Below, one piece after another: positions 14,485 to 37,640 of a stretch of DNA of 64,000 nucleotides. Each line of letters starts with the position of its first letter. Position 1 is the first letter of the stretch. This DNA comes from an uncultured Chloroflexia bacterium. GTDB lineage: Bacteria > Chloroflexota > Anaerolineae > Promineifilales > Promineifilaceae. The notes beneath the pieces are model-generated. The model worked only from the letters and a program-made list of their open reading frames with translations, made no database searches and was not told the origin of the DNA. A program made the position numbers and the translations under genes. The stretch is from NCBI GenBank assembly GCA_963736615.1, contig CAVTPP010000005.1:138473-202472 (forward strand). The letters run 5' to 3'.

Positions 14485-15534
14485 ATGAACAATATTCAAA
14501 AACTTAGTACCGCATCGAAGAGAGCCTTGACCTACATAAAAGGGCCGGAATGGTTTGCTGAATTTAGGGAAGCTGATCTACTCGGTGACTTCTCCTACGA
14601 AAAGGGTGTCATCAGGAGAGATCCCAGCGCTGTGCATAAGATTGATGACACCTATTACGTTTGGTATACAAAAGGTGTCGGTGAAACAGCTGGATTTGGT
14701 TCTGGTGATCCAGCCAAAAAAGTGTTCCCATGGGACTTAACCGAAGTTTGGTATGCTACGTCTGTTGATGGTTGGGTTTGGGAGGAACAAGGTCTGGCTG
14801 TGGGTAGAGGCCAAGCCGGCGCCTATGACGACCGAGCCGTTTTTACACCTGAAATCTTTATCCATAAAGGTAAATATTACTTGGTGTACCAGGTTGTTAA
14901 GGCCCCCTATGTTGTGCGTGTCAAGAATAATATCGGCATGGCTATCTCCACATCACCGGAGGGGCCCTGGAAAAAACTTCCTGAACCTATCTTAAAACCG
15001 GCCGATAACGGGATATGGTTGGGTGATGAAGATGATCGTTTTTCGGTCATTAAAAAAGGTGATTTTGACAGCCACAAAGTGCACGATCCCTGCCTGATGT
15101 ATTATCGGGATAAGTTCTACCTATACTATAAGGGAGAACGTATGGGTGAAGAGATGACCTTTGGCGGTCGAGAGATCAAATGGGGCGTGGCTATCGCAGA
15201 CAATCCAGAAGGGCCATACCTCAAATCAGAATATAATCCTGTGACCAATAGTGGTCATGAGGTTTGTATCTGGCAGTACCAAGGGGGGATTGCGGCCGTA
15301 TTAAGTACTGATGGCCCTGAAAAGAACACGATCCAGTATGCACAGGATGGCATAAACTTTGAGATCACGGCCGTCATCAAGAGGGCTCCTGAGGCGATGG
15401 GCCTTTTCCGGCCTGCAAATACGGATGACCATCCCCTTGATGGTATTCGTTGGGGTTTATGCCATAGATATGACAGTGAGGGGCATTGGCAATATATCCG
15501 CCGCTTTGAGACGTATTTCCCCCATAGGATATAA
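14485..15534 (+). CDS. GH117-like (GH43-related five-bladed beta-propeller) glycoside hydrolase
   Basis: 349 aa. N-terminus [39 protein letters not shown], then [11 protein letters not shown]...YYKGE and GHEVC blades. The assignment rests on remembered similarity to alpha-neoagarobiose hydrolases, not on a search. Confidence 0.55.
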
Positions 15535-15618: not shown

Positions 15619-17025
15619 CTAATTCTTCATTGAAATTTTGAACACAAAGGCATGTTCTCCAATCGGCTGAGCCGGTAAAGAGATTGTTAGCCCATCTTCA
15701 CCTTGTGACCAGGAAAGAGCACTATCGTCACCGGCCAACAACGTGATATTTTTGATGTTTTCAGCTATAAGTGGGGAATTTGTACTAAGTGATTGAATCG
15801 TAATCTGCTCTCCTGGCCAACCAAGGGGAATGGCGTAAAGCGCATTCCCCTTTTGGGTGAACCGAATATCCTTGGCAGTGAAAGGCTGATCGTCTTGTTC
15901 TTTGAGATTGCCTTCCCCAATCTTTGCCGGACCCTCGCCGTAAACGTGCCATGGTCGCGTGTCATAAATCGCTTCGCCATTGATTTGAAGCCATTGGCCC
16001 AAACCAAGCAACAAGCTGGCTGCTTCCTCGGGGATAGTACCGTCCGGGCGGGGACCTACGTTAAGTAACAGATTGCCGTTTTTGCTTACAATGTCTACTA
16101 AGTCATGGATGATGACGGCAGTTGGTTTGAACTCGTCATTTTCTATGTAGCTCCAAGATTTGTAGCTGACGGATGTATCAGTTTGCCAATAGTCTTCACG
16201 AAGATGATCAAGTTTCCCCCGCTCGACGTCAAGGACAGCGACCCCGTCTGGGAATTTGTCTTTATATTGAAGGACAACCTCTCTGCCCCATTTCAAGGCC
16301 TCATTGTAATAATAAGCGGCAACTCGAGGACGATAGGGCATAAATTCATCTTCGTGCCAGCCGAAATCAAACCAAAGCACATCAGGCTCGAATTTGTTTA
16401 TCAGTTCTTTGGTTCTGGTAAACCAATCCTTTAGCCATTCTTGGGGTGCAGGTTCATCTTCAAGGTGTGGGGGACTGTATAGCTGAATGTTTTCTGGGTC
16501 AGTGGTATCAAAATCGTCAGCATATGTGTAGAAGCGCCAGTTAAAGGCTCGATGGGAGGACACGCCAAATTTTAAACCAGCGGCCCTCGTAGTCCTTGCC
16601 AACTCGGTAACAATGTCTCGTTTCGGCCCCATCTTTGCCGCATTCCAGGGTGTATAGTCAGTATCATACATGGGAAAACCATCATGATGTTCCGCTACAG
16701 GCACAATGTAGCGTGCCCCAGCGGCTTTGAACAAATCCACCCAGGCGAGCGGGTCCCATTTCTCGCCCTTAAACATTGGAATAAAGTCTTTATAGCCGAA
16801 GGCCCCGGGATGACCATAAGTCTTAAGGTGATGCTGGAAGTAGTTGATTCCTCGTTCGGAGATTTCGTCACGGTACATGAATCGAGGGTACCATTCGTTA
16901 TCAAAAGCCGGGACTGAATACACACCCCAATGGATGAAAATACCTAACTTATCATCCTTAAACCAGTCAGGTACCTGGTATTTTTTTAATGAATCCCAAT
17001 TGGGTTGGTACATTGGTATCCCCAC
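15619..17025 (-). CDS. GH29 alpha-L-fucosidase
   Basis: YQPNWDSLKKYQVPDWFKDDKLGIFIHWGVYSVPAF is a classic GH29 N-terminus. 468 aa. GTG start at 17025 or ATG at 17013. Confidence 0.9.
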   Translation of the reverse strand: MGIPMYQPNWDSLKKYQVPDWFKDDKLGIFIHWGVYSVPAFDNEWYPRFMYRDEISERGINYFQHHLKTYGHPGAFGYKDFIPMFKGEKWDPLAWVDLFKAAGARYIVPVAEHHDGFPMYDTDYTPWNAAKMGPKRDIVTELARTTRAAGLKFGVSSHRAFNWRFYTYADDFDTTDPENIQLYSPPHLEDEPAPQEWLKDWFTRTKELINKFEPDVLWFDFGWHEDEFMPYRPRVAAYYYNEALKWGREVVLQYKDKFPDGVAVLDVERGKLDHLREDYWQTDTSVSYKSWSYIENDEFKPTAVIIHDLVDIVSKNGNLLLNVGPRPDGTIPEEAASLLLGLGQWLQINGEAIYDTRPWHVYGEGPAKIGEGNLKEQDDQPFTAKDIRFTQKGNALYAIPLGWPGEQITIQSLSTNSPLIAENIKNITLLAGDDSALSWSQGEDGLTISLPAQPIGEHAFVFKISMKN

Positions 17026-17030
17026 ATTTT

Positions 17031-17801
17031 TTAGCGACCCATCCAGCCGCCATCCACAGTCAGGATTTCGCCGTTAACATAATCCGAGGCGTTTGAAGCA
17101 AGAAACACGATGGGGCCTTTGAAATCCTCTGGATTTCCCCAGCGGCCGCTCGGAATGCGCTCAAGGATGGCTTTGTATCGCACGGGATCATTTCGAAGAG
17201 CTTCGGTGTTGTCCGTGACGATGTATCCGGGCGCAATTGCATTCACCTGGACTCCCAATCCTGCCCATTCGTTTGCCAGTGCTTTGGTAAGTCCAGCGAT
17301 GCCATGTTTCGATGATGTATATCCTGGAACTGTAATTCCACCCTGGAAAGTCAACAGAGATGCTGTGAAGATGATCTTGCCTTGACCCTGAGCAATCATC
17401 ATTTGACCAATCTCACGGCTGAGGACGAACTGGGCATTCAAATTCACCTCGATGATAGTATCCCAATATTCGTCTGGATGTTCAGCGGCGGGTTTTCGTA
17501 AAATAGTACCCGCATTATTGACTAATATATCAATTTCTGGGAAATCGGAACGAACCTGATTAATAAAAGCGTATAGAGCCTTTCGATCAGAAAAGTCGCA
17601 CTGGTAGGCACTGAAGTTTCGACCCAAGGCCTTGATTTCTTGCTCAATAATGCTGTTTTCAAGCTCTAAAGTGGCGCTGACGCCAATAATATCAGCTCCA
17701 GCTTCAGCAAGGGCCAAGGCCATCGCCTTGCCAATACCGCGTTTGCAGCCAGTTACCAAGGCAGTTTTGCCATTAAGTTTAAATAATTCGTGTATAGACA
17801 T
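17031..17801 (-). CDS. kduD: 2-dehydro-3-deoxy-D-gluconate 5-dehydrogenase-like SDR
   Basis: TGCKRGIG, YTSSK and NAIAPGYIVTDNT...IPSGRWG...FLASNASDYVNG...VDGGW. Collinear with E. coli KduD as remembered. Confidence 0.85.
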   Translation of the reverse strand: MSIHELFKLNGKTALVTGCKRGIGKAMALALAEAGADIIGVSATLELENSIIEQEIKALGRNFSAYQCDFSDRKALYAFINQVRSDFPEIDILVNNAGTILRKPAAEHPDEYWDTIIEVNLNAQFVLSREIGQMMIAQGQGKIIFTASLLTFQGGITVPGYTSSKHGIAGLTKALANEWAGLGVQVNAIAPGYIVTDNTEALRNDPVRYKAILERIPSGRWGNPEDFKGPIVFLASNASDYVNGEILTVDGGWMGR

Positions 17802-17802
17802 G

Positions 17803-18816
17803 TTAAACCTCTAGTAATATTTTCATTACGGAGCCGCCTTGCTCCATCTCTTCAAAACCGGCCTTTAGGTCTGCTAATGGGCGAACGGTGGTGATAAGTC
17901 TACCTAAAGGGAGTTTGCCCGAGGCCGCCAGCTTGATGGCCCGGTCAAAATCCTGGGACTCGTAAACGCGGACGCCAATCATTCTCAGCTCACGCCAGAA
18001 AAAACGAAATAAATCGACCTCTTGCGGTTGACCGAAAATGGCAACAATCACAGCAAGGCCCCGTGTGCGTAACAAATCAGTCATCACTGTGGCTCCGGCC
18101 GCTGATCCCGACACCTCGAAAACAACATCAGCACCCGCCCCATTTGTTTGGGCTAAAACATGATCTAAGAGTGCCATTTCCTTTGGGTTAATTGCATCAA
18201 AGCCCAAGGAGTGGGCCAATTCAACACGGTAGGGGTTGATTTCCGACAGCGTAACTTTTGCGCCTGCTTCTTTGGCTACCATGGCAATTAACATGCCGAT
18301 AGGCCCGCCTCCAAGAACGACTACATAATCATCGGCTTTCACCTCGGCAAGCCGCACGTCGTGGCAGGCAACTGCCATTGGTTCAATCAATGCGCCGTGA
18401 ATTAACGAAAGGCTGTCAGGTAGATGGTGTAAGGTATGGGCCGGAACCGTCCAATAGCTTTGAAAAGCGCCGGGGGTATCAATTCCCAAAAACTTAAGAT
18501 TGTGACAAATGTGAGAATGCCCTGCCTGGCAGGCAGGGCAATGCCCACAGGGATCTAACGGCATGACTGTGACCCGATCCCCTACCTGAAACCCTTCTAC
18601 GCCCGCACCTAAAGTGTGAACAACACCCGACATCTCATGCCCCATAATCTGAGGCATCGCCACGCGGGCGTCCATCACACCATGAAAGATGTGCAAATCG
18701 GTGCCGCAGATTCCACTGTGAGATACCTTGAGTTGTACTTCACCTGGCTTGGGCGGCACAGGATCACAAGTGCCTATTGAGATGCGGCGATTACCTTCAT
18801 AGTACGCTGCGTTCAT
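17803..18816 (-). CDS. Zn-dependent medium-chain alcohol/polyol dehydrogenase
   Basis: GHEMSG, structural-Zn CGHCPACQAGHSHIC and GGGPIG motifs. A 1-nt gap separates it from kduD. Confidence 0.85.
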   Translation of the reverse strand: MNAAYYEGNRRISIGTCDPVPPKPGEVQLKVSHSGICGTDLHIFHGVMDARVAMPQIMGHEMSGVVHTLGAGVEGFQVGDRVTVMPLDPCGHCPACQAGHSHICHNLKFLGIDTPGAFQSYWTVPAHTLHHLPDSLSLIHGALIEPMAVACHDVRLAEVKADDYVVVLGGGPIGMLIAMVAKEAGAKVTLSEINPYRVELAHSLGFDAINPKEMALLDHVLAQTNGAGADVVFEVSGSAAGATVMTDLLRTRGLAVIVAIFGQPQEVDLFRFFWRELRMIGVRVYESQDFDRAIKLAASGKLPLGRLITTVRPLADLKAGFEEMEQGGSVMKILLEV

Positions 18817-18824
18817 ATTTCCTC

Positions 18825-19436
18825 CTACTGGATATTTGCTTTGAGGGCTTTCATCGCTCCGGCCTTATCCCCACTGCGAATGGCGTCAAGAATGCGTTTA
18901 TGTTCGTAGAAGCTATCCATTAGTTCATCGCCAAAGCGACTATAACGGATTGACATACGCAGAGCGATGGGCTGCCACAGACCGATATAGTCGCCATTTT
19001 CGGTGCTTTCAATAAGGGCTTTATGAAAGCGCAGGTCATGTGCTACCAACATGTATTCGTCGCCCTTTCCACAGGCATCTTTGATATCTGTTAATATTCC
19101 TTCTAAATTGACGATATCATCATCATTTATTTGGTCAAAGAAATGGTCCAAGACATAGAGTTCAATCGTTTGTCTAAGTTCTATGATTAGCGAGCGCATC
19201 GAAGGCGAGGGTTGCTGCGCGACCCGCACCCCTTTATTCGGCGTAGAGATGAGTAAACCTTGCTGCGTCAACTGGCGAAACACCTCGCGGACAGGGCCAC
19301 GGCTTACGCCAAACCTTTCTGATATCTCTTGTTCACGCAAGGCCTGATCGGGTTCCAATCTACCCGAGAGGATATCGAGGCGCAGATACTCTGCAATTTG
19401 ACCCTGCATTGTACGAATTTCGTCGGTAGAAGTCAT
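18825..19436 (-). CDS. GntR-family regulator, FadR subfamily (FCD domain)
   Basis: HTH segment ISERFGVSRGPVREVFRQLTQQGLL followed by a helical C-terminal domain. 203 aa. Confidence 0.85.
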   Translation of the reverse strand: MTSTDEIRTMQGQIAEYLRLDILSGRLEPDQALREQEISERFGVSRGPVREVFRQLTQQGLLISTPNKGVRVAQQPSPSMRSLIIELRQTIELYVLDHFFDQINDDDIVNLEGILTDIKDACGKGDEYMLVAHDLRFHKALIESTENGDYIGLWQPIALRMSIRYSRFGDELMDSFYEHKRILDAIRSGDKAGAMKALKANIQ

Positions 19437-19500
19437 GATTAGTTCCGCATTTTTATGTGCTTCATTCCTTTTTTACTTACACGATCATAATGGAGGATTT

Positions 19501-19577
19501 GTAGATTGTCAACAATTTACATTTGACAATTTACAATTTAATTCTTATATTAGGCGATGGTAGATTGTATTCAATTT
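19501..19577. promoter_or_regulatory. two 18-nt direct repeats GTAGATTGTNNNCAATTT in the divergent promoter region (candidate operator)
   Basis: Copies at 19501-19518 and 19560-19577, identical at 15 of 18 positions. They lie between the GntR gene (-) and the dehydratase/AOR/eda/kdgK operon (+). Confidence 0.4.
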
Positions 19578-19677: not shown

Positions 19678-20769
19678 ATGATCATTACCGACCTGGAAAC
19701 CAAGCATTTTTATCTTCCGTTGCGCACTCACATGACTGATTCGACTCATGGCGAAATGACTCATTTTGAAGTGATCATGGTCAGGATTGAAACAGATGAG
19801 GGGATCGACGGTCTTGGTTATACCTATACCATAGGCCAAGGTGGGGCAGCTATACGATCTTTAATTGACCAAGCATTAAAACCCCTGTTGTTGAATGCAA
19901 ATGCGCGAAGAATCGAACAATTATGGGACGAGATGTGGTGGCGTTTACACTATATCGGTCGGGGCGGCCTGGTTTCTTTTGCTATTTCCGCAGTAGATAT
20001 TGCTCTCTGGGATCTGATCGGCCGTAAGGAGGGGGTGTCCCTTTGGCAGTTACTTGGAGGCCACTCAAATTCCGTCAAGCCATATGCCGGTGGGATTGAT
20101 CTTCATCTCACTCTTGACGAGCTTCTCGAGCAAACTGAAGACAATTTAGCCGAAGGTTTCCGGGCTATTAAGATGAAGGTTGGTCAGCCCCACCTTCGGG
20201 AAGACATCGAGCGTGCAAAGGCCGTTAGAGAACTGGTTGGACCAGATATTGTCTTGATGGTCGATGCCAACATGCGCTGGGATGTTCCCACGGCAATCCA
20301 AGCGGCCCGCCAACTGCGCGATTACGACATCTTTTGGCTTGAAGAACCGATCATTCCGGATGATGTTCATGGCCATGCTCGAATTGCTCAAGAGGGTGGG
20401 CTGCCCATCGCCACCGGTGAAAACCTGCACACCATTTACGAATTTAAGAACATGATTCAACACGGCCGAATCGCTTATCCGGAACCTGATGTTTCCAATA
20501 TTGGTGGTATTACCAATTGGATGCGCGTGGCTAAATTGGCCTATGCCAACAACTTGCCGGTAACGACGCATGGCGTTCATGAACTTCATCTTCATCTTTT
20601 GGCCGCAATACCAAACGCCTCTTATTTGGAAGTACATAGTTTCGGGTTGGAACGATTTATCATTAATCCCCCAGCTATTATTGAAGGTGTGATGGCTGCT
20701 GCGGATGAACCTGGTCATGGTGTAAAATTCGACTGGCAATCACTCGCCGAGTTCAGCATTAATTCTTGA
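19678..20769 (+). CDS. enolase-superfamily (mandelate racemase/muconate lactonizing) sugar-acid dehydratase or cycloisomerase
   Basis: Metal-ligand motifs MVDANMRWD, WLEEP and ATGENL. 363 aa. Confidence 0.85.
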   Translation: MIITDLETKHFYLPLRTHMTDSTHGEMTHFEVIMVRIETDEGIDGLGYTYTIGQGGAAIRSLIDQALKPLLLNANARRIEQLWDEMWWRLHYIGRGGLVSFAISAVDIALWDLIGRKEGVSLWQLLGGHSNSVKPYAGGIDLHLTLDELLEQTEDNLAEGFRAIKMKVGQPHLREDIERAKAVRELVGPDIVLMVDANMRWDVPTAIQAARQLRDYDIFWLEEPIIPDDVHGHARIAQEGGLPIATGENLHTIYEFKNMIQHGRIAYPEPDVSNIGGITNWMRVAKLAYANNLPVTTHGVHELHLHLLAAIPNASYLEVHSFGLERFIINPPAIIEGVMAAADEPGHGVKFDWQSLAEFSINS

Positions 20770-20823
20770 TGTTACGTTTTTTTATAGCATAAGGATCCTT
20801 CAATCCCGTAAGGAGATAATCAA

Positions 20824-22800
20824 ATGTTTGGATATCATGGAAAGATCTTACACGTTGACCTGACTCAAGGATCAATCAACATTGAAGAACCCGAGGAATC
20901 TTTTTACCGCCGCTATTTTGGCGGCAGTGCGATGGGTGCCTATTACTTGCTTAAGCATACACCACCAGGCGTAGATGCCCTGGATCCGGAAAACACATTA
21001 GCTTTGATGCTTGGCCCGGCCACCGGTACGGCTATAGCCGGTCAAGCCCGCGTGACATCTACGGCGAAATCACCCCTCACCGGGCTCATTGGCGATGCCC
21101 AAGGAGGTGGCTATTGGCCTGCAGAGTTGAAGTTCGCCGGTTTTGATGGCATTGTCATCTATGGCAAAGCTGATAAGCCAGTTTATCTTTGGGTAAGCAA
21201 TGGAAAGGCGGAACTGCGGGACGCAGCTCATTTGTGGGGCAAGTACACGGCGGATGTAGAGGATGCCATCCGTGAAGAAATGGATGATAAACGTATCGAG
21301 GTTCTACAATGTGGGCCAGCGGGGGAGAATGGTGTGCGTTATGCTGCCCTGATCAGCTATGCTAATCGTGCTAACGGCCGTACCGGAATGGGTGCCGTCA
21401 TGGGCTCGAAGAATTTGAAAGCTGTCGCCGTACGCGGCAAGAATCGACCCGAAGTAGCCGATCCCGAGCGGTTTAAAACAGTTGCTAAATGGGGATCCTC
21501 CCATATTAAAACGGACGCAAGTTGGGGTGTACTGGGCACGCCCGGTGGTACGCTCTCGCAATCCTGGTCGGGTGGACTGCCGACAAACAACTGGGTCTCT
21601 GGAACATTTAGTAAAGCCGAGGAGATCGATGGCGAAAAATTGTACGACACGATCACACTAGAACGTGATACTTGTTACGCCTGCGCCATTCGTTGCAAAC
21701 GTGTGGTGGAAGTGACTGAGGGGCCTTATCAGGTAGAAGCGCGTTATGGTGGACCAGAATATGAAACATTAGGAATGCTGGGCTCAAGTTGTGGTGTTTC
21801 CAGCCTGGAGGCGATCTCCCTCGCCAATCAGCTCTGTAACATGTACGGCATGGACACTATTTCATGCGGCGGGACAATTGCCTGGGCAATGGATTGTTTC
21901 GAGCAGGGATTAATCACCCTGGAGGATACAGGTGGGATTGAACTCACTTTTGGCAATACAGATGCGATGGTGAAGATGGTGGAGTTGATCGGCAAACGGG
22001 AGGGTTTTGGTAATGTATTGGGCGAAGGATCGGCGCAAGCGGCAGAAATTCTCGGCGTTGGTCAGGATCTGGTAGTGACGGTGAAGAAACAGGAACTGCC
22101 GGCCCATATGCCCCAAGTCAAACGCAGCCTAGGTCTGATCTATGCCGTTAACCCTTTTGGTGCCGACCACATGTCCAGTGACCATGACTCCGGTTACGAA
22201 TCTTTCTCCGAACGACTGTCTGAATTTGGCCTGATCGATCCGCAGCCTGCCCAGACCTTGAATGGTCAAAAAGTGCGTTTCGCCTATTATACACAGCTTG
22301 TCTACAGCTTTATGGACACAGCGCCCTTGTGCAGCTTTGTTTGGGGGCCCTCCTGGCAGCTCTTCAACTCTAGTCAGTTGGAGGAGATGATACGTGCGAC
22401 CACAGGTTGGGATATGAACCTTTGGGAGTTGATGAAAATTGGCGAGCGACGTTTGAATCTTTTGCGTGCCTATAATGTGCGTGAAGGGGTCGGACGAGAG
22501 GCCGATACAATACCGAAGAAGCTAACTGTCGCCCTCCAAGGGGGAAAGAGTGATGGATTATCAGTTACTGTAAATGAAATAGAAGAGGCGAAAGACCTCT
22601 ATTTCCAGATGGCGGGATGGGATGAGAACGGCCACCCAACACGAGCAAAGCTAGAAGAACTCTCGCTCGGTTGGCTGGCAAACGAGTTATGGGGGGAAGG
22701 TGCTTTTGCAGTGAATGCTGACAGCTCAATGACATCAAAACGGCCTGGGGTTTTGGGTGAGTTCTTTGATGTTGACGATCCGGCTTCAGCCCCCCAATAA
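20824..22800 (+). CDS. aldehyde:ferredoxin oxidoreductase (tungstopterin AOR family)
   Basis: N-terminus MFGYHGKILHVDLTQG...YFGGSAMGAYYLL, then GGPEYETLGMLGSSCG and the Cys motif CYACAIRC. 658 aa. Confidence 0.9.
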   Translation: MFGYHGKILHVDLTQGSINIEEPEESFYRRYFGGSAMGAYYLLKHTPPGVDALDPENTLALMLGPATGTAIAGQARVTSTAKSPLTGLIGDAQGGGYWPAELKFAGFDGIVIYGKADKPVYLWVSNGKAELRDAAHLWGKYTADVEDAIREEMDDKRIEVLQCGPAGENGVRYAALISYANRANGRTGMGAVMGSKNLKAVAVRGKNRPEVADPERFKTVAKWGSSHIKTDASWGVLGTPGGTLSQSWSGGLPTNNWVSGTFSKAEEIDGEKLYDTITLERDTCYACAIRCKRVVEVTEGPYQVEARYGGPEYETLGMLGSSCGVSSLEAISLANQLCNMYGMDTISCGGTIAWAMDCFEQGLITLEDTGGIELTFGNTDAMVKMVELIGKREGFGNVLGEGSAQAAEILGVGQDLVVTVKKQELPAHMPQVKRSLGLIYAVNPFGADHMSSDHDSGYESFSERLSEFGLIDPQPAQTLNGQKVRFAYYTQLVYSFMDTAPLCSFVWGPSWQLFNSSQLEEMIRATTGWDMNLWELMKIGERRLNLLRAYNVREGVGREADTIPKKLTVALQGGKSDGLSVTVNEIEEAKDLYFQMAGWDENGHPTRAKLEELSLGWLANELWGEGAFAVNADSSMTSKRPGVLGEFFDVDDPASAPQ

Positions 22801-22857
22801 AAATAGTATCTATGCTTTAACAATCAGGTCAAACTAAAGAAGAGGGTCAAGTTCATT

Positions 22858-23496
22858 ATGAATGAAATTGTGGAGCAATTGGGTCGGATAGGAATTATTC
22901 CCGTGGTGGCAATAGATGATGCGGATACGGCCGTTTCTCTCGGCCAAGCACTGCTCGATGGCGGGCTGCCCTGTGCTGAAATTACCTTTCGCACAGCCGC
23001 AGCAGCAGATGCTATCCAAAAAATGAGCGCTGCGCTCCCTGACATTTTGGTTGGAGCCGGCACGGTATTGACGGTGAACCAAGCGGAGAAGGCAGCGGCT
23101 GCCGGGGCCAAATTTATTGTCACTCCTGGTTTTGATGCCCAGGTCGTAGATTGGTGTCAAGCAAATAACATGCCTGTTACGCCCGGCGTGATGACACCAA
23201 CGGACATTAACCAAGCGATTGCCAAAGGGTTGAACATTCTTAAGTTTTTCCCTGCTGAAGTGGCGGGCGGCGTCAAAGCCCTGAAAGCGATTGGTGGTCC
23301 TTATGTGGGCCTCAAATTCATCCCTACGGGAGGCATCAGTGCAAATAATCTCGCCGATTATCTCAGCCTGCCAATGGTGCATGCCTGTGGTGGTAGTTTT
23401 ATGGTGAAGAAGCAGCTGATTGCCGATGGCCAATTTGAAACCATCACCCAACTGGCGCAAACGGCCGTTGATATTGTCAAATCAGCCCGTTCATAA
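22858..23496 (+). CDS. eda: 2-dehydro-3-deoxyphosphogluconate (KDPG/KHG) aldolase
   Basis: GIIPVVAIDD...AEITFRT...GAGTVL...KFFPA motifs. 212 aa. Confidence 0.9.
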   Translation: MNEIVEQLGRIGIIPVVAIDDADTAVSLGQALLDGGLPCAEITFRTAAAADAIQKMSAALPDILVGAGTVLTVNQAEKAAAAGAKFIVTPGFDAQVVDWCQANNMPVTPGVMTPTDINQAIAKGLNILKFFPAEVAGGVKALKAIGGPYVGLKFIPTGGISANNLADYLSLPMVHACGGSFMVKKQLIADGQFETITQLAQTAVDIVKSARS

Positions 23497-23594
23497 AAAT
23501 AGCGATCCGATTTTATCGGAAACTTCGGCGCAGAATAGAATGAACTGCGGGAACAGAATGTCTCGTATTCAGGAAATTGATTTGGAGGATTATC

Positions 23595-24641
23595 ATGAGT
23601 AAGCGAGTGGTAACTTTAGGTGAGATCATGCTGCGCTTAAAACCACCTGGATTTGAGCGCTTTTTTCAAACACCAATATTAGAAACCACCTTTGGTGGAG
23701 GGGAAGGAAATGTGGCCATTTCCCTGGCGAATTTTGGGCTAGATGTTTCGTTTGTGACCGCATTGCCCAACAATCCCATTGCTGATGCGTGCATTCGTTT
23801 CTTGCGGGGATTTGGCGTCGACACCTCACTGATTCAACGAAGTGGTGAACGGATGGGGGTTTATTTTTTGGAGGGTGGCGCAAATCAACGGCCGTCGAAC
23901 GTTGTTTATGATCGTGAAAATTCTGCGATTGCCAGCGCCGCAGGCGACTCCTTCGATTGGGATATCATTTTTGATGAGGCAGGCTGGTTTCACATTACGG
24001 GTATTACACCTGCATTGAGTGAAACGGCTGCTGCTCTTTCTCTGCAAGCGGTTCAAGCTGCCCGAGCCCGGGGAGTCACCGTTTCCTGTGATTATAATTA
24101 CCGTAAAAAGCTTTGGAAATATGGTAAAACAGCGCCGGAAGTCATGTCTGAGCTGGTCAAATACGTGGATGTGGGTATTGCGAATGAAGAGGATTGCCAA
24201 CGTTCCCTTGGCGTCAGCGTTATGGAAGGGGATTGGGAACATTCTGTATCATTTGGAGAGCTTGATACGGCACGCTACGAAGCATTAGCCAAAAAGATGT
24301 TTGAGACCTTCCCTAATCTGAAATACCAGACGATCACCCTGCGCGAAAGTTATAGTGCCAGTCATAATGGCTGGTCGGCATGCCTATACAATGGCTCAGA
24401 ATTCTTTCTCAGCCCTCGCTACGACATCACTGATATTGTGGACCGCGTCGGCGGCGGCGACTCGTTTGCTGCCGGCTTGATATATGGCTTACACACCGGT
24501 ATGGGAGATGGGGATGCATTGACTTTTGCCGTGGCTGCGTCGTGTCTCAAACACAGCATCGCCGGGGATGCAAATCTATCGACGGTGGCAGAAGTCAAGC
24601 GGCTGGCTGGTGGTGACGCATCAGGACGCGTGCAGCGATAG
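23595..24641 (+). CDS. kdgK: 2-dehydro-3-deoxygluconokinase (PfkB family)
   Basis: [16 protein letters not shown]-terminus and [13 protein letters not shown] signature. ATG at 23595 follows a GGAGG RBS; the ORF is open from 23577. Confidence 0.85.
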
Positions 24642-24790
24642 AAGCATGCAAGGATAATTCGTAACTACGCATGGACTCGAGGGCTGATCCTGTCGAAGCT
24701 CGGTTCCGCCTTCGACAAGCTCAGGCTACACCTGATTAGTGACGAAAACTCTTTAAGAAGTTGGGATTTTACTTGCAGCGTGGGAACTTT

Positions 24791-25699
24791 TCATTCCGGG
24801 CCGAATGGAAAGTATTCAACTTCATGTTTGATCGCCTCAATCTGAATCGCGATCTCGCGCTTATCTGCAGCGTCAAGCTCGAGAGCACCGGCCGGAGCCC
24901 GCTCGACGGCCGTCGTAAAGACCCCTCGCCGGTTAAGCATGTAGCGCATGAAGGGGTAGGTTTCCAGATTAATCAATGGTAGCAACCGGGTATGCAGCGC
25001 CCGGGCTCCGGATTGATCACCGGCCCACCACAATTCCATTACCTTGGCCAAGAGATCTGCGATTTCACAAGCCGGCATACAGCCATTGGCTCCTCGTGTT
25101 AACTCATCAGGCAAAAACTTTCCACCCGCGCCCCCAAAGATGGTCTTGACTTTATCGCCGACTAAATCGGCGATTTCGGCGATATGTTTGGGACCAGGTT
25201 CCCGCTCTTCTTTAATATATTCTATTGAAGGAACTTCTTCGATGAGGCTGGCGATTTGCTCTCCGTTTAACGGCGCATACATCCCGGCATTTTGCAGCAC
25301 AATCGGACCGTAAAAATTGTCGGCAAGACGGCGGAACATTTCAATAGCGATTGTCTGATCGGTGCGGGCCGGGGCCATGGCAATAATCGCGTCGGCACCC
25401 GCCTTTTGTGCTGCACGGGCAAAGAGTAGTACCTGAGGTAAAGAAATGCCGGAGCAGCCAAAAATTAAAGGGAGTCGGCCGTTGATCTCTTCCAGCAGTG
25501 CGTCTAGCCCACGGATCCGTTCTTCTTCCCCCAAAAAATAAAACTCACCAACCATAACTGGCCATACGATGCCGTGCTGGCCACTGCGGCAGCAAAAGTT
25601 GGCGGCGGCCTTCAAATCCGGGATAAGAATCTCGTAATCGGCGTCATAGGGGGTTGGTAGGAGACCGAAACAGCCTTTAAGATGATCGAAGCGAGCCAT
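24791..25699 (-). CDS. DHDPS/N-acetylneuraminate-lyase-family aldolase (candidate 2-keto-3-deoxy sugar-acid aldolase)
   Basis: 302-aa ORF with the length and layout of the DapA/NAL family. Lies 12 nt downstream of an enolase-superfamily dehydratase gene. Confidence 0.75.
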   Translation of the reverse strand: MARFDHLKGCFGLLPTPYDADYEILIPDLKAAANFCCRSGQHGIVWPVMVGEFYFLGEEERIRGLDALLEEINGRLPLIFGCSGISLPQVLLFARAAQKAGADAIIAMAPARTDQTIAIEMFRRLADNFYGPIVLQNAGMYAPLNGEQIASLIEEVPSIEYIKEEREPGPKHIAEIADLVGDKVKTIFGGAGGKFLPDELTRGANGCMPACEIADLLAKVMELWWAGDQSGARALHTRLLPLINLETYPFMRYMLNRRGVFTTAVERAPAGALELDAADKREIAIQIEAIKHEVEYFPFGPE

Positions 25700-25711
25700 A
25701 TTGGTTTATCC

Positions 25712-27049
25712 TTATTCTTTCCAACGATTATCGGGTCGCCAGAAGCCAAGCTTCGGTGTGTTCCACTCATCTGTGGGCAGAAACAGTGTGTCTGGTGTGC
25801 GCAAATTAGCCTCGATGGCTTCCAGGTTAAGATCGACTCCTAACCCCGGGGAATCCGGTACCGTGACATAACCATCCTTCATATAGTCACTTGGGAGGCC
25901 GGTTACTAAGCTCTCCCAGAAGGGTAGATCAAGCCCATGATGTTCTAAGGCGAGAAAGCTAGGGATAGCTGCCGCGCAGTGTACGTTGGCCATAAAACCT
26001 ATTGGAGAACCGGCACAATGTAGTGCGGTGGGAATTCCATAACGCTCCCCGTAGTCGGCGATCTTTTTAGTTTCCATCATGCCACCAGATGTGAGTAGAT
26101 CGGGGTGCAAAATATCAATGGCTCGCTGCTCAATCCAGTCACGGAATCCATCCCACAAATAAAGTTCTTCGCCGGCCGCAATGGGTGTGTGCAAGGCATC
26201 GGCGACGCGCTTGTGGCCAACAAGGTCGTCCCACGGCATCGGATCTTCAATCCAAGCCAGGTGATAGGGTTCCCAGGCTTCCCCCAGACGGATCATTTCA
26301 TCGAGCGTCAGATGCCCATGTCCAAAATGATCGGTACAAAGAGAGATTTCTTCTCCGACAGCTTCACGAATGGCCGCCACAATATTAACTGAGGCTTCGA
26401 TTCCACGATCGGTCAGGCGTGCGCCGGCCCCTGTGCCGGGTGCTCGCCATTGACGCCCCAGTGCATAATCCCCACGTGTCGATTGGCCCACAAGCCCTCC
26501 GGGAACCGACTCGAAAAGTGTAGGTCGGAGGTCGAACTTAATGAAGGTCAACCCCAGAGCTTGTCGACTGGCGAGCGCTTCTCGATAGCCATCAACAGTT
26601 GGTTCGTCTGGTGCTGGGGTATCGGCATACAGGCGCACCATGTCGCGATATTTGCCGCCGAGCAGTTGGTAGCATGGGACACCATAAACCTTGCCCACGA
26701 GATCCCAAAGGGCTATTTCGATACCAGAGACGCCTCCGCCTTCGCGTCCCCAATTGCCAAACTTCTTGAGCGCCCGAAAGATCATATCGACATTGCATGG
26801 ATTTTGCCCAAGCAACATGCTTTTAAACTGCAGTGCATTTTCTTTGTGGCCTGCATCACGCACCTCACCCAATCCATAGATCCCCTGGTTGGTGTCAATG
26901 CGAATGATGGGGTAGTCGTAATTACTGGCGACCACGGCAATACGCATGTCGGTTATCTTGAGATCGCTTGGCTGTGAGTGGGTCCTGATGGCATCTTCAA
27001 CGCGATTAAGTTGGGCTTTTTTGCTTGATGAATTTTGCTGGATAGTCAT
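25712..27049 (-). CDS. enolase-superfamily sugar-acid dehydratase (gluconate/galactonate/mannonate dehydratase-like)
   Basis: 445 aa. Motifs GLGEVRDAG, WIEDP and AAGEEL. Confidence 0.85.
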   Translation of the reverse strand: MTIQQNSSSKKAQLNRVEDAIRTHSQPSDLKITDMRIAVVASNYDYPIIRIDTNQGIYGLGEVRDAGHKENALQFKSMLLGQNPCNVDMIFRALKKFGNWGREGGGVSGIEIALWDLVGKVYGVPCYQLLGGKYRDMVRLYADTPAPDEPTVDGYREALASRQALGLTFIKFDLRPTLFESVPGGLVGQSTRGDYALGRQWRAPGTGAGARLTDRGIEASVNIVAAIREAVGEEISLCTDHFGHGHLTLDEMIRLGEAWEPYHLAWIEDPMPWDDLVGHKRVADALHTPIAAGEELYLWDGFRDWIEQRAIDILHPDLLTSGGMMETKKIADYGERYGIPTALHCAGSPIGFMANVHCAAAIPSFLALEHHGLDLPFWESLVTGLPSDYMKDGYVTVPDSPGLGVDLNLEAIEANLRTPDTLFLPTDEWNTPKLGFWRPDNRWKE

Positions 27050-27243: not shown

Positions 27244-29567
27244 CTATGTAAGTTGGACGGTAAGTCGGCTGGCTCCATCAGTCGGGAGCAGCAGTGTTCC
27301 CTGCATATCTGCTTTACTAATGCCACCGCTGACAGCAGCAACGGCCGTTATCCCTCTCAGAAGTATCCGCCACGGTTCAGTCGCTCCCTTGACCTCGATA
27401 TTTATTATTTCACCATCGCGGCAGAGGTGTAGAGTTACGCCGGTATCTCCTTGGAGTGTGGGGACGGAAACGGAAACGACTGCCTTTTCTTCCAGATTAA
27501 AGAGATGGAAGGTCACATTATCGGCGAAGTTGTAGTCGGGACGGCTGTCGTTGGCTCCAATGGGGATGATGCTGTTCGGCCGTACCCACAGCGGCAGGCT
27601 GAAAAAATCATACGATTCCCGTCGCCAGCTGCCGCCTTGCGCTACTTCTCCACTCAGGAAATGAGTCCAACGCCCTGCAGGCAGGTAGTAATCAACCACA
27701 TTATCATGCCGGAAAACAGGCGCGACCAGCAGCGATTCGCCCAACATATATTGCCGATCCAGATAATCACAGCCGGGATCATCGGGGAATTCCAGCATCA
27801 TAGCGCGCAAAGTAGGCAGAGCCGCTCTCATGCGCTTGCACGGCTGCGCCATATAGATAGGGCATCAGGCGACATTTGAGCTTGGTGAAGTAGCGCAGCA
27901 CATCCACCGCTTCTTCGTCAAAGAGCCAGGGCACACGATAAGATTCGCTGCCATGCAGGCGGCTGTGCGAAGAAAGCAAACCAAAGGCACACCAGCGCTT
28001 GTATACATCAGCGGAAGCTGTTTGCTCAAAACCGCCAATATCATGGCTCCAAAAGCCAAAGCCAGACAGCGAAAGCGACAGGCCGCCGCGCAAACTTTCC
28101 GCCATCGACTCAAAAGTTGCGGTGCAGTCACCGCCCCAATGCACGGGGAATTGTTGACCGCCGGCGGTAGCGGAACGGGCAAAGACAACAGCTTCGCCTG
28201 GGCCACGTTCTTCCTCCAGCACTTCAAATACGGTTTGGTTGTAGAGATAGGTATAGAAGTTGTGCATCTTCACCGGGTCGGAGCCGTCATGGTAAACAAC
28301 ATCAGTGGGGATGCGTTCGCCGAAGTCGGTTTTGAAGCAGTCTACGCCCATTTTCAGCAATCCACGCAGTTTGTCTGCCAAACCAGCGGCAGGCATCGGG
28401 ATTGGTAAAATCGACCAGCCCCATGCCCGCCTGCCACCGATCCCACTGCCAGACATCGCCATCGGGCGTTTTGACCAGGTAGCCGTTTGCCATGCCTTCG
28501 TCAAACAGAGCTGAGCGTTGGGCGATATAGGGATTGATCCAGACGCAAATGTGCAGGCCGCGCGCTTTGAGCCGCTGCAGCATGCCTTCCGGATCAGGGA
28601 AAAACGCGTCATCCCATTCGAAATTGGTCCAGTGGAACTCCTTCATCCAGAAGCAATCAAAGTGGAAGACGTGCAGCGGTAAATCGCGGTCGGCCATGCC
28701 TTGCACGAAACTGGTGACGGTTGCTTCGTCGTAATCGGTGGTGAAGGAGGTGGAGAGCCAGAGGCCAAAGGACCAGGCTGGCGGCAATGCGGGCCGTCCG
28801 GTCAGCGCGGTGTAACGAGTGAGTACCTCTTGAGGCGTGGGGCCGTTGATGATGAAGTAGTCGAGTGATTCGCCAGGTACGCTGAACTGCACGCGTTCCA
28901 CTTTTTCGGAGCCGACTTCAAGGGAGACCAGTTCTGGATGGTTGATGAAGACGCCATAGCCGCGGTTGGTGAGGTAGAAGGGGATGTTCTTATAGGCCTG
29001 TTCGCTGCTGGTGCCGCCGTCTTCGTTCCACAGATCTACGACCTGGCCATTTTTGACGAAGGGGGTGAAACGTTCACCCAGACCATAGACACATTCGCCA
29101 ACGCCGAGGCCAAGCTGCTCGTGGATGTAGCGGCCATTTTCCGTATCCACATATCCCATACCACGCCAGCCACTTTGGGTCAGCAAACGCGAGCCATCGA
29201 AATATTCCACGAGCCAATTTTCGCCCTTGTGCACACGAACGGAGAGATCGCCGCTGGTCATGGCGGCGAAGGACTCTTCATTTTCAATGTGAATCTCGTG
29301 CTCGTGTTGGAATTGAAGCGGAAATGTAGGTATAGACGGCCGTTGCCCTTTGTGATGTCCGATTTGAACTCTAATCACATTGGGAATGGGTGAAGAAAAG
29401 CGCACCGTGAACAACCCCGTATTTACCGTATCGGCCCGATGAGCCAGTCGTTTTGTAGCGCCGTAAACGATGAGGGCATTTGACTCTACTTCGACATCAT
29501 AGACGTGGATAGGATGATGTGCTGTTACACCTGAGCGAATATGCCAATAACCATCAGTGAATTTCAT
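27244..29567 (-). pseudogene. GH31 alpha-xylosidase (YicI-like, ~775 aa) with two frameshifts (~28379 and ~27810-27822)
   Basis: MKFTDGYWHIRSG N-terminus, VDCFKTDFGERIPTDV, HWGGDC and RAMMLEFPDDPGCDYLDRQYMLG. The three listed ORFs join as ...DACRWF|ADKLRGLL... and ...AHESG|LPTLRAMM... Confidence 0.85.
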
Positions 29568-33892: not shown

Positions 33893-35266
33893 ATGAAACG
33901 ACCCAACATCCTTTTTCTTCTTACCGACGATCAACGGTTTGATACGATTCATGCATTAGGCAATGAACAAATTCACACGCCAAACCTGGATTATTTGGTA
34001 GAAAATGGCGCGGCTTTTACCCATCCGCTATCATGGGCGGCACATCTGGAGCGGTATGTATGCCCAGCCGGGCCATGATGCATACCGGTCGCACGCTCTT
34101 TCACCTGCACGCCAGGGACAGAACCATCCCCGAGGAGCATATATCTGCTGGAAGAGCCGGCAGGCGCACGGATATGAAACATGGGGCACGGGCAAATGGC
34201 ACAACTCACGGCATCGTATGCGCGCAGCTTCACCGCCGGCGACGAAATTTTTTCGGGGGCATGGACGATCACTGGAACGTGCCCGCCAACCATTATGACC
34301 GGAGCGGCGATTATCCGGCCCCGCCCCAGGTCAAAGTCCGTTGGCTGCTCGAACGAAGTGACCTAACCGTCAAACGTTGATCATATCTCCCAGGAGTACA
34401 CTCGAGCGAGTTGTTCTGCGATGCGGCCGCGAATTTCCTGCAAAGCCACAGCTCTGACGCGCCCTTTTTCATGTATCTCGCCTTCATGGCGCCGCACGAT
34501 CCACGCACCATGCCGCGGGAATATCTGGACATGTATGACCCAACGAGATCGAGCTGCCGCCCAACTTTATGCCCGAGCATCCCTTTGACAATGGCGAACT
34601 CAAGGTCCGTGACGAGCTGCTGGAAAAATGGCCTCGCACCGAAAAGGCCATCAGACGCCACCTGGCCGAGTACTATGCCATGATCACCCACGCTGACGCC
34701 CAGATGGGCCGCGTGCTGGACGCTCTGCGGGAGTCAGGTCAGGCTGAGAACACAATCATCGTGTTTGCGGGCGATAACGGTCTGGCGCTGGGGCAGCATG
34801 GGCTTATGGGCAAGCAAAGCCTCTATGACCACAGCGTGCGCGTGCCCTTGGTGATGATGGGACCGGGGATCCCGGTGGGGGAACAACGTGACGTACTTTG
34901 CTATCTGATCGATATATACCCAACGCTATGTGAGGTGACCGGGCACACGATTCCCAAATCGGTGGAAGGACTCAGCTTAGGGCCGGCATTGGTGGACACG
35001 GCCGTTCCCCATCGCACCCACCTCCATTTTGCATTTACAGATTTGCAGCGGGGCGTGACGGATGGACGTTACAAGTTGATCGAATCTATCACAAATGACT
35101 GTCTTACTACCCAACTTTTTGACCTCAAGCCAGATCCTGGGAATTAAATAACCTGTCAGACGACCAGGCTTTTTCAAGTTCTGTCGCTCGATTACGTCAG
35201 GAATTGGTGAAGTGGCGCACGGAATTGGATGATTGGGGCGATCTGTTCTGGAAAGGTTATGAATAG
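33893..35266 (+). pseudogene. formylglycine-type sulfatase, heavily disrupted (about 7 frame changes plus an in-frame TGA at 34378-34380)
   Basis: [23 protein letters not shown] (CxPSR), GYETWGTGKWHN, FGGMDDHW, PFFMYLAFMAPHDP, YYAMITHADAQMGRV, FAGDNGLALGQHGLMGKQSLYDHSVRVP and DPGELNNL tail segments are found in alternating frames. Confidence 0.85.
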
Positions 35267-36382: not shown

Positions 36383-36493
36383 GCAGCCATAAGCAAGCCG
36401 ACTCCAATGACATTGATCATCAACTAAAATATTTAATGACCAACTCGAAGAACTAAATTTTAAGAAGACAATAATAAATGGAGAAAGAAGAGA

Positions 36494-37630: not shown

Positions 37631-37640
37631 CGAGGAAACT

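Follow-up and report, generated by a model that had tools for sequence, protein, structure and literature searches.

A candidate ferredoxin-linked AHG oxidoreductase encoded in an agar-catabolic operon of an uncultured Anaerolineae bacterium

Previous work showed that the first step of the known bacterial route for 3,6-anhydro-L-galactose (AHG), a sugar of red-algal agar and of porphyran, is carried out by an AldA-type NAD(P)+ aldehyde dehydrogenase (ALDH) (PMC5943477, PMC11219438). In the window, by which we mean the whole 64,000-nt stretch of DNA analysed here, a gene for an AOR-family pterin/[4Fe-4S] aldehyde:ferredoxin oxidoreductase (AOR) lies within a sugar operon, and the question is which aldehyde its product oxidises. 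An earlier note on this DNA had proposed an archaeal-style non-phosphorylative branch with a C3 hydroxy-aldehyde as the AOR substrate. The gene (20824..22800, + strand, 658 aa) is intact, with no internal stops and with full-length AFOR_N and AFOR_C domains (Pfam), and it does lie, as the note described, between an enolase-superfamily gene and eda-kdgK; the positions and strands of these ORFs and the short same-strand gaps of 54, 57 and 80 nt (cycloisomerase-AOR, AOR-eda and eda-kdgK) were confirmed. Membership of a sugar-catabolic operon in a polysaccharide locus was also supported, and the linkage is conserved. The proposed substrate fared less well. From sequence comparison, the aldehyde oxidised is most likely AHG itself, the sugar that enters the pathway, rather than a C3 aldehyde at the far end, and the AOR probably stands in for the ALDH as an AHG oxidoreductase linked to ferredoxin.

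The MR_MLE gene upstream of the AOR gene (19678..20769, +), labelled a dehydratase/cycloisomerase in the note, encodes a 3,6-anhydro-L-galactonate cycloisomerase (ACI) and not a dehydratase, with PDB matches to 2OVL (E 7e-128) and 5XD7 (E 7e-114), the latter titled 'anhydro-alpha-L-galactonate cycloisomerase', and a next-best match at 1.5e-65. The protein is 47-50% identical to the ACIs of two canonical clusters, those of a Catenovulum plasmid (GntR and ACI-ZnADH-SDR-aldA) and of B. uniformis pBUN1 (GH117..ZnADH-SDR-aldA-ACI..kinase). Downstream of the AOR gene lie genes for a KDPG/KHG aldolase, Eda (22858..23496, +; TIGR01182, 254 bits, cut-off 156; NF004325, 259 bits, cut-off 241), and a PfkB-family 2-keto-3-deoxygluconate (KDG) kinase, kdgK (23577..24641, +; Pfam PfkB; matches to the kinase half of NF041633 and to KDG/KDGal kinases), which shares 51% identity with the B. 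uniformis sugar kinase of that cluster. Divergent from the cycloisomerase gene is an operon that starts with a GntR/FCD regulator (18825..19436, -; Pfam GntR and FCD), whose position is kept in the Catenovulum cluster and in loci L024, L094, L099, L127, L129 and L207. Next come a Zn-dependent alcohol dehydrogenase (17803..18816, -; Pfam ADH_N and ADH_zinc_N), a putative 2-keto-3-deoxy-L-galactonate 5-dehydrogenase with 51-52% identity to the Zn-ADH of both canonical clusters, and a KduD-type SDR (17031..17801, -; TIGR01832 kduD, 340 bits, cut-off 338.85), 71-76% identical to the canonical SDRs. One of the latter is annotated as a 2,5-diketo-3-deoxy-L-galactonate 5-reductase, the predicted activity here, with KDG as product. 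The final gene of the divergent operon encodes a GH29 alpha-L-fucosidase (15619..17025, -; Pfam Alpha_L_fucos, E 3e-104); GH29 genes also adjoin AOR genes in relatives, and GH29 is part of the agar/porphyran cluster of B. uniformis. Beyond it lies a gene for a GH117 3,6-anhydro-alpha-L-galactosidase, or neoagarobiose hydrolase, which frees AHG (14485..15534, +; PDB 3R4Y, 4AK5 and 3P2N at E 1e-142 to 4e-148; 60-63% identity to the GH117 enzymes of the two clusters). A weak Pfam match to GH43 had suggested that label for this gene; it was dropped, the PDB matches being to GH117 anhydro-galactosidases.

The 241-nt divergent intergenic region contains two back-to-back promoter-like sites (19484..19551; consensus matches only), the best two sigma-70-like matches in a 6.3-kb scan, at 11/12 each and one per strand. 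In the same scan neither a comparable promoter-like site nor a terminator was found in the gaps between the cycloisomerase, AOR, eda and kdgK genes. Strong promoter-like sites are confined to the GntR gap, and the AOR gene starts 54 nt downstream of the cycloisomerase gene; co-transcription of the operon is predicted.

Orthologues of five of the six published AHG steps are thus encoded here, at 47-76% identity to the two canonical clusters. In the proposed scheme, GH117 would release free AHG from agar and porphyran; the AOR would oxidise the AHG aldehyde group to 3,6-anhydro-L-galactonate, passing two electrons to ferredoxin; the cycloisomerase would convert this acid to 2-keto-3-deoxy-L-galactonate; the Zn-ADH and the KduD-type SDR would convert that to KDG; and KdgK and Eda would yield pyruvate and glyceraldehyde-3-phosphate. 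The GntR/FCD regulator would control both divergent operons. Such a pathway, with an AOR in place of the NAD(P)-dependent dehydrogenase, would be a variant of the known AHG pathway; we found no report of one.

The non-phosphorylative branch proposed earlier would instead use an enolase-superfamily dehydratase and a DHDPS/NAL aldolase (24791-27049) to give pyruvate and glyceraldehyde or lactaldehyde, the latter two for oxidation by the AOR. A DHDPS-family gene (24791..25699, -) and a second MR_MLE gene, MLE2 (25712..27049, -; Pfam/NCBIfam), do converge on the operon, the locus includes the GH29 fucosidase, and fungal DHDPS-family aldolases can split 2-keto-3-deoxy-L-galactonate (PMC11219438). 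However, the first MR_MLE protein is a cycloisomerase, the known conversion of 2-keto-3-deoxy-L-galactonate to KDG is covered by the Zn-ADH and KduD orthologues, and the operon itself includes kdgK and eda, which mark the route as phosphorylative, with glyceraldehyde-3-phosphate as its product in place of free glyceraldehyde. Nor was the aldolase assignment borne out: the DHDPS-family protein matches Pfam weakly (62 bits), its closest solved relatives are L-2-keto-3-deoxyarabonate dehydratases (E 5e-18), and its match to DapA is weak too. The DHDPS/MLE2 pair is absent, moreover, from every related AOR locus examined. We consider this branch very unlikely.

The remaining published step is that of the AHG dehydrogenase, and no AldA-type orthologue was found in the window's own genome (a MAG, 87% complete) or in the genomes of L023 and L024. 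AldA-type enzymes were recognised by NF007497 (cut-off 500), which both reference aldA products pass, at 517 and 537 bits; they are 57% identical to each other. The best ALDH of the own genome, which has seven full-length ALDH-family loci, reaches 339 bits with this model and shares 34-37% identity with the reference aldA products. The possibility has to be considered that the AOR is a broad-specificity scavenger of reactive aldehydes, AHG included, kept in agar loci for protection, and that an NAD(P)+ ALDH, encoded at 10438-11895 or elsewhere, oxidises AHG. The window ALDH gene lies 2.6 kb from the GH117 gene, divergent to a DUF362-GH88-GH117 operon. Characterised AHG dehydrogenases are divergent and promiscuous, SCO3486 for example being promiscuous and 40% identical to the Vibrio enzyme (PMC9706016), and therefore a non-orthologous ALDH could do the AHG step. 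On the other side, model scores place the window ALDH with BADH-like enzymes (455 bits) rather than with AldA (339 bits, below the cut-off). As to the AOR, enzymes of this type typically have broad substrate ranges, as is established for P. furiosus AOR, and the enzyme here may still be a generalist, because it is the sole representative in its genome of the wider AOR clade of Anaerolineae.

Related loci bear on the same choice. The window AOR belongs to an AHG-linked clade of 19 AORs (SH-aLRT 100) that takes in every AOR with agar context, a second AOR lineage being treated apart. GH117 and/or ACI genes adjoin the AOR gene, without an ALDH gene, in 10 of the 11 known contexts in this clade, and about ten related Anaerolineae loci have a clade member beside GH117 and/or the cycloisomerase. 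The L022 AOR, of the same subclade and 87% identical to the window AOR, lies outside agar loci, as a scavenger might, and some 50 sister-clade AOR loci (60-70% identity) have no GH117 or ACI neighbours. Among 401 genomes of the class, AORs of at least 74% identity occur only in G000 and G336, as does a true AHG module; these genomes are of different families, AORs of the host's own family show 52-64% identity, and none is found in genomes of the same genus. It follows from this distribution that the AOR gene moves together with its locus. Its linkage to agar operons is conserved and not accidental.

Two further comparisons argue against a purely protective role. Locus L129 has the architecture of the window locus, but an AldA-type ALDH gene (53% identity to B. 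uniformis aldA) directly 5' of ACI and no AOR gene in the 12.3 kb examined; judged by gene content, ALDH and AOR alternate within one architecture. In none of the ten related agar loci, nor in L207, is the AOR gene joined by one for an ALDH. This last locus reads GntR-AOR-ACI-ZnADH-SDR-GH117-sulfatase-GH29, with gene ends overlapping or abutting, and its AOR is of the second lineage, 39% identical to the window AOR; L208 and L209 have the same gene order, shorter or with a broken ZnADH call, and L133 (sulfatase-ACI-AOR) is also of this lineage. A single clade for the two groups is rejected by the AU test (delta lnL 870, p 3e-9), and on this phylogeny AOR has been recruited independently to AHG loci in two lineages. 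Two unrelated AOR lineages thus adjoin the cycloisomerase, one translationally coupled, and we regard the scavenger explanation as unlikely.

The AOR might also act on oligosaccharides, at the reducing-end anhydrogalactose of agarobiose-series products formed by alpha-agarase-like enzymes, or on another porphyran-processing aldehyde. The products of alpha-agarases carry anhydrogalactose at their reducing end, and four related loci have, immediately 5' of the AOR gene, a member of a family without a Pfam model that resembles an alpha-agarase (PDB 9M0B, E 2e-51). Genes with a URO-D fold are likewise recurrent neighbours of the AOR gene. The own genome, however, has no homologue of the alpha-agarase-like family, and in the window, L127, L133 and L207 the AOR gene adjoins that of the cycloisomerase, an enzyme whose substrate has to be the free monomer of the acid. 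This is the least probable of the readings, and oxidation of free AHG remains the one we favour.

Pterin-cofactor genes, a check proposed in the note, are present in the own genome (MoaA, MoaC, MoaE and three MoeA genes), as are PFOR-type enzymes and small 2x[4Fe-4S] ferredoxin ORFs, though the window has no ferredoxin gene. As for the metal that the enzyme is predicted to carry, W or Mo, a search of this 87% complete MAG gave no binding protein of the ModA, WtpA or TupA type, the last being that of the tungstate transporter tupABC named in the note. The genome encodes heme-copper oxidases, so the host cannot be strictly anaerobic, and in the anaerobe B. uniformis it is an ALDH that serves the AHG step.

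The closest solved relative of the window AOR is P. furiosus AOR (1AOR, AOR sensu stricto), with a full-length alignment at E 6e-118. The window enzyme has the four [4Fe-4S] cysteines (C284, C287, C291 and C503) and the catalytic Glu and His (E314 and H449), all invariant in it and 99 relatives, together with the G-x-D and D-x-x-x-x-C pterin motifs, and no extra subunit genes lie nearby. Unlike the P. furiosus enzyme, it is from a mesophilic sediment bacterium, is encoded within a sugar operon and has a 36-aa C-terminal extension, common to P0002 and P0003. Near the catalytic Glu and His are clade-specific residues, M318, M450, D453 and A500, which residue comparison did not find in the second lineage. 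The natural substrates of the archaeal AOR are amino-acid-derived aldehydes, and we know of no AOR-family enzyme with a hexose-derived aldehyde as substrate.

Compared with the bacterial AHG pathway (VejAHGD/VejACI of Vibrio sp. EJY3, the six-step route of Pseudoalteromonas atlantica, and SCO3486/SCO3480 of S. coelicolor; PMC5943477, PMC9706016), the locus has orthologues of GH117, cycloisomerase, Zn-ADH, KduD-type reductase, KDG kinase and KDPG aldolase, with the GntR regulator and clustering seen in Catenovulum and B. uniformis. It differs in having an AOR-family enzyme where the AldA-type ALDH was not found, and in a predicted acceptor that is ferredoxin instead of NAD(P)+. Archaeal branched and non-phosphorylative Entner-Doudoroff pathways, as in Thermoproteus tenax, use an AOR-type glyceraldehyde:ferredoxin oxidoreductase. 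There, too, AOR-family aldehyde oxidation in sugar breakdown is tied to ferredoxin, but the aldehyde is glyceraldehyde after aldol cleavage; here it is most likely an intact C6 anhydro-sugar before ring opening, and the operon is phosphorylative. The AOR-family glyceraldehyde-3-phosphate:ferredoxin oxidoreductases (GAPOR/GOR), with a bacterial example in Caldicellulosiruptor bescii, are an earlier case in which a member of the AOR family has taken over from an NAD-dependent dehydrogenase of sugar metabolism, also in a polysaccharide-degrading bacterium. The window AOR is of another clade (42 bits with the NCBIfam GAPOR model, cut-off 1300), and would act on a different substrate at a different position in its pathway.

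The 658-aa product of the gene at 20824-22800 (+) is a full-length member of the aldehyde:ferredoxin oxidoreductase family (hereafter AOR). In Pfam/NCBIfam searches, AFOR_N (PF02730, E 3e-74) matched residues 6-205 and AFOR_C (PF01314, E 3e-117) matched residues 227-615. The P. furiosus AOR (1AOR) aligned end to end over residues 1-615 (E 6e-118), and FOR, WOR5 and BamB gave progressively lower scores; the window protein was therefore grouped, by scores, with AOR sensu stricto. In the 1AOR alignment the [4Fe-4S] ligands C288, C291, C295 and C494 of the P. furiosus enzyme correspond to C284, C287, C291 and C503, the first three of which occur in every one of 99 relatives and the last in 98, with a gap in the remaining row. 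The catalytic Glu and His near the metal (P. furiosus E313 and H448) are E314 and H449, both invariant in the same 99 relatives. The pterin-binding motif D/N-x-x-G-x-D is N-M-Y-G-M-D at residues 339-344, with G342 and D344 invariant and N339 the residue usual among bacterial members, and the motif D-x-x-x-x-C is D-T-A-P-L-C at residues 498-503. No indels inside AOR were listed against short-read contigs. Clade-specific substitutions numbered four under strict and about fifteen under relaxed criteria, several of them adjoining E314, H449 or C503. Because a second AOR lineage linked to 3,6-anhydro-L-galactose (AHG) lacks the substitutions near the catalytic site, they were not used as evidence of specialization.

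All of the ORFs described in the earlier note were confirmed in position and strand. AOR is the second of four genes on one strand, being preceded by an enolase-superfamily gene (ACI, also called MLE1; 19678-20769, +) and followed by eda (KDPG aldolase; 22858-23496, +) and a PfkB KDG-kinase-like gene (kdgK; 23577-24641, +), the last two assigned by Pfam/NCBIfam models; the three gaps are 54, 57 and 80 nt. ACI, taken by the earlier note to be a dehydratase, is instead a cycloisomerase. Its closest solved structures are 2OVL (E 7e-128), presumably a Streptomyces coelicolor protein, and the 3,6-anhydro-alpha-L-galactonate cycloisomerase 5XD7 (E 7e-114), with the next family at 1.5e-65. Divergent from this operon are genes for a GntR/FCD regulator (18825-19436, -), a zinc alcohol dehydrogenase (Zn-ADH; 17803-18816, -) and an SDR (17031-17801, -) that passes the KduD equivalog model. 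Of the promoter-like sites in this stretch, found as consensus matches, the two best lie back to back at 19484-19551 in the divergent gap, and none lies in the internal operon gaps. Farther along, at 14485-15534, is a gene for a GH117 3,6-anhydro-alpha-L-galactosidase, the AHG-releasing enzyme, which matches 3R4Y, 4AK5 and 3P2N at E about 1e-148 and for which Pfam gives a weak "GH43" call.

Two annotated, canonical AHG clusters served as references. The Catenovulum adriaticum plasmid has a GntR gene beside cycloisomerase, Zn-ADH, '2,5-didehydro-3-deoxy-L-galactonate 5-reductase' and aldA (the AHG dehydrogenase gene), with GH117 nearby, and Bacteroides uniformis pBUN1 has GH117, then Zn-ADH, SDR, aldA and cycloisomerase, and farther on a sugar kinase, GH29 and a sulfatase. 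Identities of the window proteins to the two references were 47-50% for ACI, 51-52% for Zn-ADH, 71-76% for the SDR and 60-63% for GH117. These values are close to those between the references themselves, as for orthologues. By this likeness in sequence, Zn-ADH and the SDR would act as L-KDGal 5-dehydrogenase and L-DDGal 5-reductase, respectively. In the published route, AHG is oxidized to anhydrogalactonate by an NAD(P)+ AHG dehydrogenase, the cycloisomerase makes L-KDGal, and L-DDGal, KDG and KDPG follow, the last being cleaved to pyruvate and glyceraldehyde-3-phosphate (PMC5943477, PMC11219438, PMC9706016). Given the published route and the orthologues of the flanking enzymes, the locus is the phosphorylative pathway for AHG seen in degraders of agar and porphyran. 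The earlier note had proposed an archaeal-style non-phosphorylative Entner-Doudoroff branch, a scheme made unlikely by the kinase and the KDPG aldolase in the operon. It had also tied AOR to a dehydratase/aldolase pair, namely the DHDPS-family protein (24791-25699, -) and a second enolase-superfamily protein, MLE2 (25712-27049, -), which were recognized by Pfam/NCBIfam models and converge on the AOR operon. That tie was lost on comparison, as no related AOR locus was found to carry homologues of the pair. The DHDPS-like protein has weak matches to L-2-keto-3-deoxyarabonate (L-KDA) dehydratases, its best solved relatives (E 5e-18), and to DapA; MLE2, with 445 aa, is an uncharacterized ManD/GalD-like protein. 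The two paired genes, which are not conserved with the agar module, may serve a Weimberg-type sugar-acid route.

AOR lies directly after the gene for the cycloisomerase, whose substrate is the acid expected from AHG oxidation. With the NCBIfam AldA model NF007497 (cut-off 500 bits), the aldA proteins of the two reference clusters, which share 57% identity, score 517 and 537 bits. Among the nine ALDH-family matches in the genome of the window, seven of them full length, no AldA-type AHG dehydrogenase was found in this 87%-complete MAG, the best scoring 339 bits and being 34-37% identical to the reference proteins. The genomes carrying two of the related AOR-agar loci (L023 and L024) likewise have no ALDH above the NF007497 cut-off. 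The best AldA-model scorer of the window's genome is encoded in the window itself, at 10438-11895 (-); a BADH-like model matches it best (455 bits). This protein may be the AHG oxidizer, since AHG dehydrogenases are divergent and promiscuous (PMC9706016). Its gene is divergent from a DUF362-GH88-GH117 operon.

AOR homologues with 60-70% identity are abundant in Anaerolineae, and no agar genes were found near AOR in about 50 Anaerolineae genome loci at that level of identity. All AORs of the Anaerolineae type that do have an agar context fall in one subclade (SH-aLRT 100), 74-90% identical to the window AOR. The order cycloisomerase-AOR-eda-kdgK is shared by the window and L024, and L127 has Zn-ADH, GntR and cycloisomerase-AOR. 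In L094/L095 the order is cycloisomerase-SBP-SDR-alpha-agarase-like-AOR, in L096 and L099 (the same as L023) cycloisomerase and SBP are followed farther on by AOR-GH117-GH16, and L122 and the contig of the AOR relative P0010 have cycloisomerase-GH117-AOR-URO-D. In L097, L098 and L121, AOR lies amid genes for alpha-agarase-like proteins, GH117, sulfatases and GH29. Across these loci no ALDH gene was found close to AOR, and the sole ALDH-family match, in L024, is 31% identical and about 9 kb downstream of AOR. One member of the subclade is an exception: the AOR of L022 (87% identical) lies amid URO-D, Gfo/Idh/MocA, ThuA and altronate-dehydratase-like genes.

In a class-wide sample of 401 genomes, an AOR with at least 74% identity was present only in the genome of the window and one other (G336), which belong to different GTDB families. 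The genuine module, made up of a cycloisomerase with at least 70% identity together with Zn-ADH, SDR and GntR, was likewise confined to this pair. AORs in the window's own family are 52-64% identical, and both same-genus genomes lack AOR. AOR therefore moves with the agar locus and not with the organism. Elsewhere in the class, ACI-like genes with 52-63% identity were in unrelated contexts, and those of L100 and L101 (67-71%) were uninformative. The possibility was also weighed that the window AOR is a generalist enzyme, which it could be as the sole member, in its genome, of the wider Anaerolineae AOR clade. The genome has two further AOR loci, with 35% and about 43% identity; the latter gene (C5:93552-95375, about 45 kb before the window) is frameshifted, being broken over several frames. 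That AOR is a functional part of agar-sugar catabolism we consider likely, more so than its specific role.

Several observations were made on the related loci in passing. In four of them (L094, 8032-9954; L097, 6133-9952; L098, 151-1926 and 4800-6791; L121, 3074-6855), the position just upstream of AOR is taken by a family without a Pfam model, which has two paralogue groups (591 aa and about 640-667 aa). The family matches the solved alpha-agarase 9M0B (E 2e-51), and no homologue of it was found in the genome of the window. URO-D-fold genes adjoin the agar-linked AOR in relatives (L098, 3227-4348; L122, 11939-12943; L022, 6873-7931; the P0010 contig) and are present in the window too, at 35597-38294. 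A speculative role for them, as corrinoid-type methyltransferases, is the oxygen-independent removal of the 6-O-methyl group of porphyran galactose. A marine-sediment contig joins 15509, the end of GH117, to 20822, the start of AOR, with 38 other bases between. The join reproduces the GH117-AOR arrangement of L121 and L122, and its 28-nt anchor is too weak to count. A locus of Litorilinea sp. (BPHT01000016.1) has the same architecture, with SDR-ZnADH-permeases opposite cycloisomerase-SBP-GH117-GH16, and neither AOR nor ALDH within 10 kb; it was set aside as uninformative.

The metagenome locus L129 has the Chloroflexi-type architecture, with SDR-ZnADH-GntR-permease-permease-GH117-like on one strand and ALDH-cycloisomerase-SBP on the other. 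The gene before its cycloisomerase encodes an ALDH of the AldA type (53% identity to B. uniformis aldA), and the 12.3 kb covered contain no AOR. A second AOR lineage, 39% identical to the window AOR and with one relative (P0250) named Planctomycetes in one source, is also found beside the cycloisomerase. In L133 the order is sulfatase-cycloisomerase-AOR. In L207 it is GntR-AOR-cycloisomerase-ZnADH-SDR-GH117, followed by three GH117-like genes, a sulfatase and GH29, with gene ends that overlap or abut and no ALDH in the operon. The contig of L208, shorter than that of L207, shows the same order to its end, the Zn-ADH call being broken; L209 covers only the first genes. The two agar-linked AOR groups form separate, fully supported clades in a 37-row tree, and an AU test on the same rows rejected their union (delta lnL 870, p 3e-9), the groups having been set by context before the test, yet after earlier trees had been seen. 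Two separate recruitments of AOR beside the cycloisomerase are the strongest argument that AOR supplies the substrate of that enzyme. Four other loci (L137, L139, L140 and L143; e.g., L139, 7870-11092) have an AOR with 35% identity divergent to an ACI-like gene with 64-66% identity. Their surroundings encode NrdD (anaerobic ribonucleotide reductase), an OYE-type flavoenzyme/reductase, an aminotransferase and an HpaB-like protein. As this context is not that of agar, these loci were left out of the count; they may represent an unrelated aldehyde-to-acid-to-MR_MLE pairing.

The earlier note had also asked for pterin-cofactor and tungstate-transport genes. The former were found in the genome of the window, which has MoaC, MoaE, MoaA (with one frame break) and three MoeA genes. 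The latter were not: a PF12849 plus PF13531 search of the 87%-complete MAG gave no ModA, WtpA or TupA, the matches being PstS, PhnS-like and thiamine-type binding proteins. The genome also has genes for PFOR-type enzymes and small ORFs for ferredoxins, with no ferredoxin gene within the window. An [FeFe]-hydrogenase that might serve as a ferredoxin sink was not found in the genome. Heme-copper oxidase subunit I genes were seen at three loci, one of them intact (C3:1506836-1508200, C6:47442-48748 and C3:158439-159618), and the host is therefore unlikely to be a strict anaerobe. A caveat on the AOR reading is that B. uniformis is an anaerobe, yet uses an ALDH.

Near-identical contigs came from marine-sediment and salt-marsh metagenomes. 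Two 151-nt contigs of a salt-marsh RNA library are identical to AOR at 21303-21584, a hint of expression at most, as DNA carry-over is possible. The GH31 alpha-xylosidase gene at 27244-29567 (-) is split over three frames, and short-read contigs from two marine-sediment runs have one base fewer at 27821/27826 and at 28377, exactly at the frame switches, so the split probably reflects assembly indels of the MAG and not a pseudogene. Other frame-split genes encode a GH38 mannosidase (4388-7298), a GH2 protein (31441-33808) and a sulfatase (33893-35266). Given the GH31 result, these splits, and many others in the window, may be long-read sequencing errors of the MAG too.

AHG is unable to close a pyranose ring and is largely a free or hydrated aldehyde. 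In the scheme we propose, AHG freed by GH117 would be oxidized by AOR to 3,6-anhydro-L-galactonate with reduction of ferredoxin, and the cycloisomerase, Zn-ADH, KduD-type reductase, KdgK and Eda would carry out the rest of the route, the divergent promoters being under GntR/FCD control. For AOR, the substrate, acceptor and metal, as well as co-transcription with its neighbors, are those that we infer. The integration of AOR into a bacterial polysaccharide locus, which the earlier note had put forward, stands on firmer ground than its author could know, and the proposed coupling of sugar catabolism to ferredoxin is retained, with ferredoxin as the presumed acceptor. Judged from sequence and context, AOR is probably a ferredoxin-linked AHG oxidoreductase that takes the place of the ALDH. 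To the broader proposal we give an even chance, namely that at least two unrelated AOR lineages, one in sediment Anaerolineae and the second in a possibly planctomycete group, were recruited as dedicated AHG:ferredoxin oxidoreductases, displacing the NAD(P)+ dehydrogenase of an agar-utilization locus that is horizontally mobile.

Among the carbon pools of red algae, agar and porphyran are major ones. If the proposed role is true, anoxic breakdown of red-algal galactans would be W/Mo-dependent and ferredoxin-linked; the turnover of algal polysaccharides in marine and salt-marsh sediments would be tied to the supply of the trace metals W or Mo, and the low-potential electrons would shift the fermentation balance of agar degraders. 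AHG loci seemingly without a first enzyme would be explained, and there is possible engineering interest for the anaerobic conversion of red-seaweed sugars. A literature search, not an exhaustive one, found no paper in which AHG or GH117 is paired with AOR-family enzymes or tungsten. Among AOR-type enzymes, it would be the first whose substrate is a hexose-derived sugar aldehyde, and the family would gain a new class of substrate. To our knowledge, the sole known entry step for AHG, the signature sugar of agar and porphyran, is the NAD(P)+ aldehyde dehydrogenase. Compared with that known pathway, the locus would be a variant, biochemically unproven, that arose by non-orthologous displacement, a clear case of such displacement and one that has apparently arisen twice.
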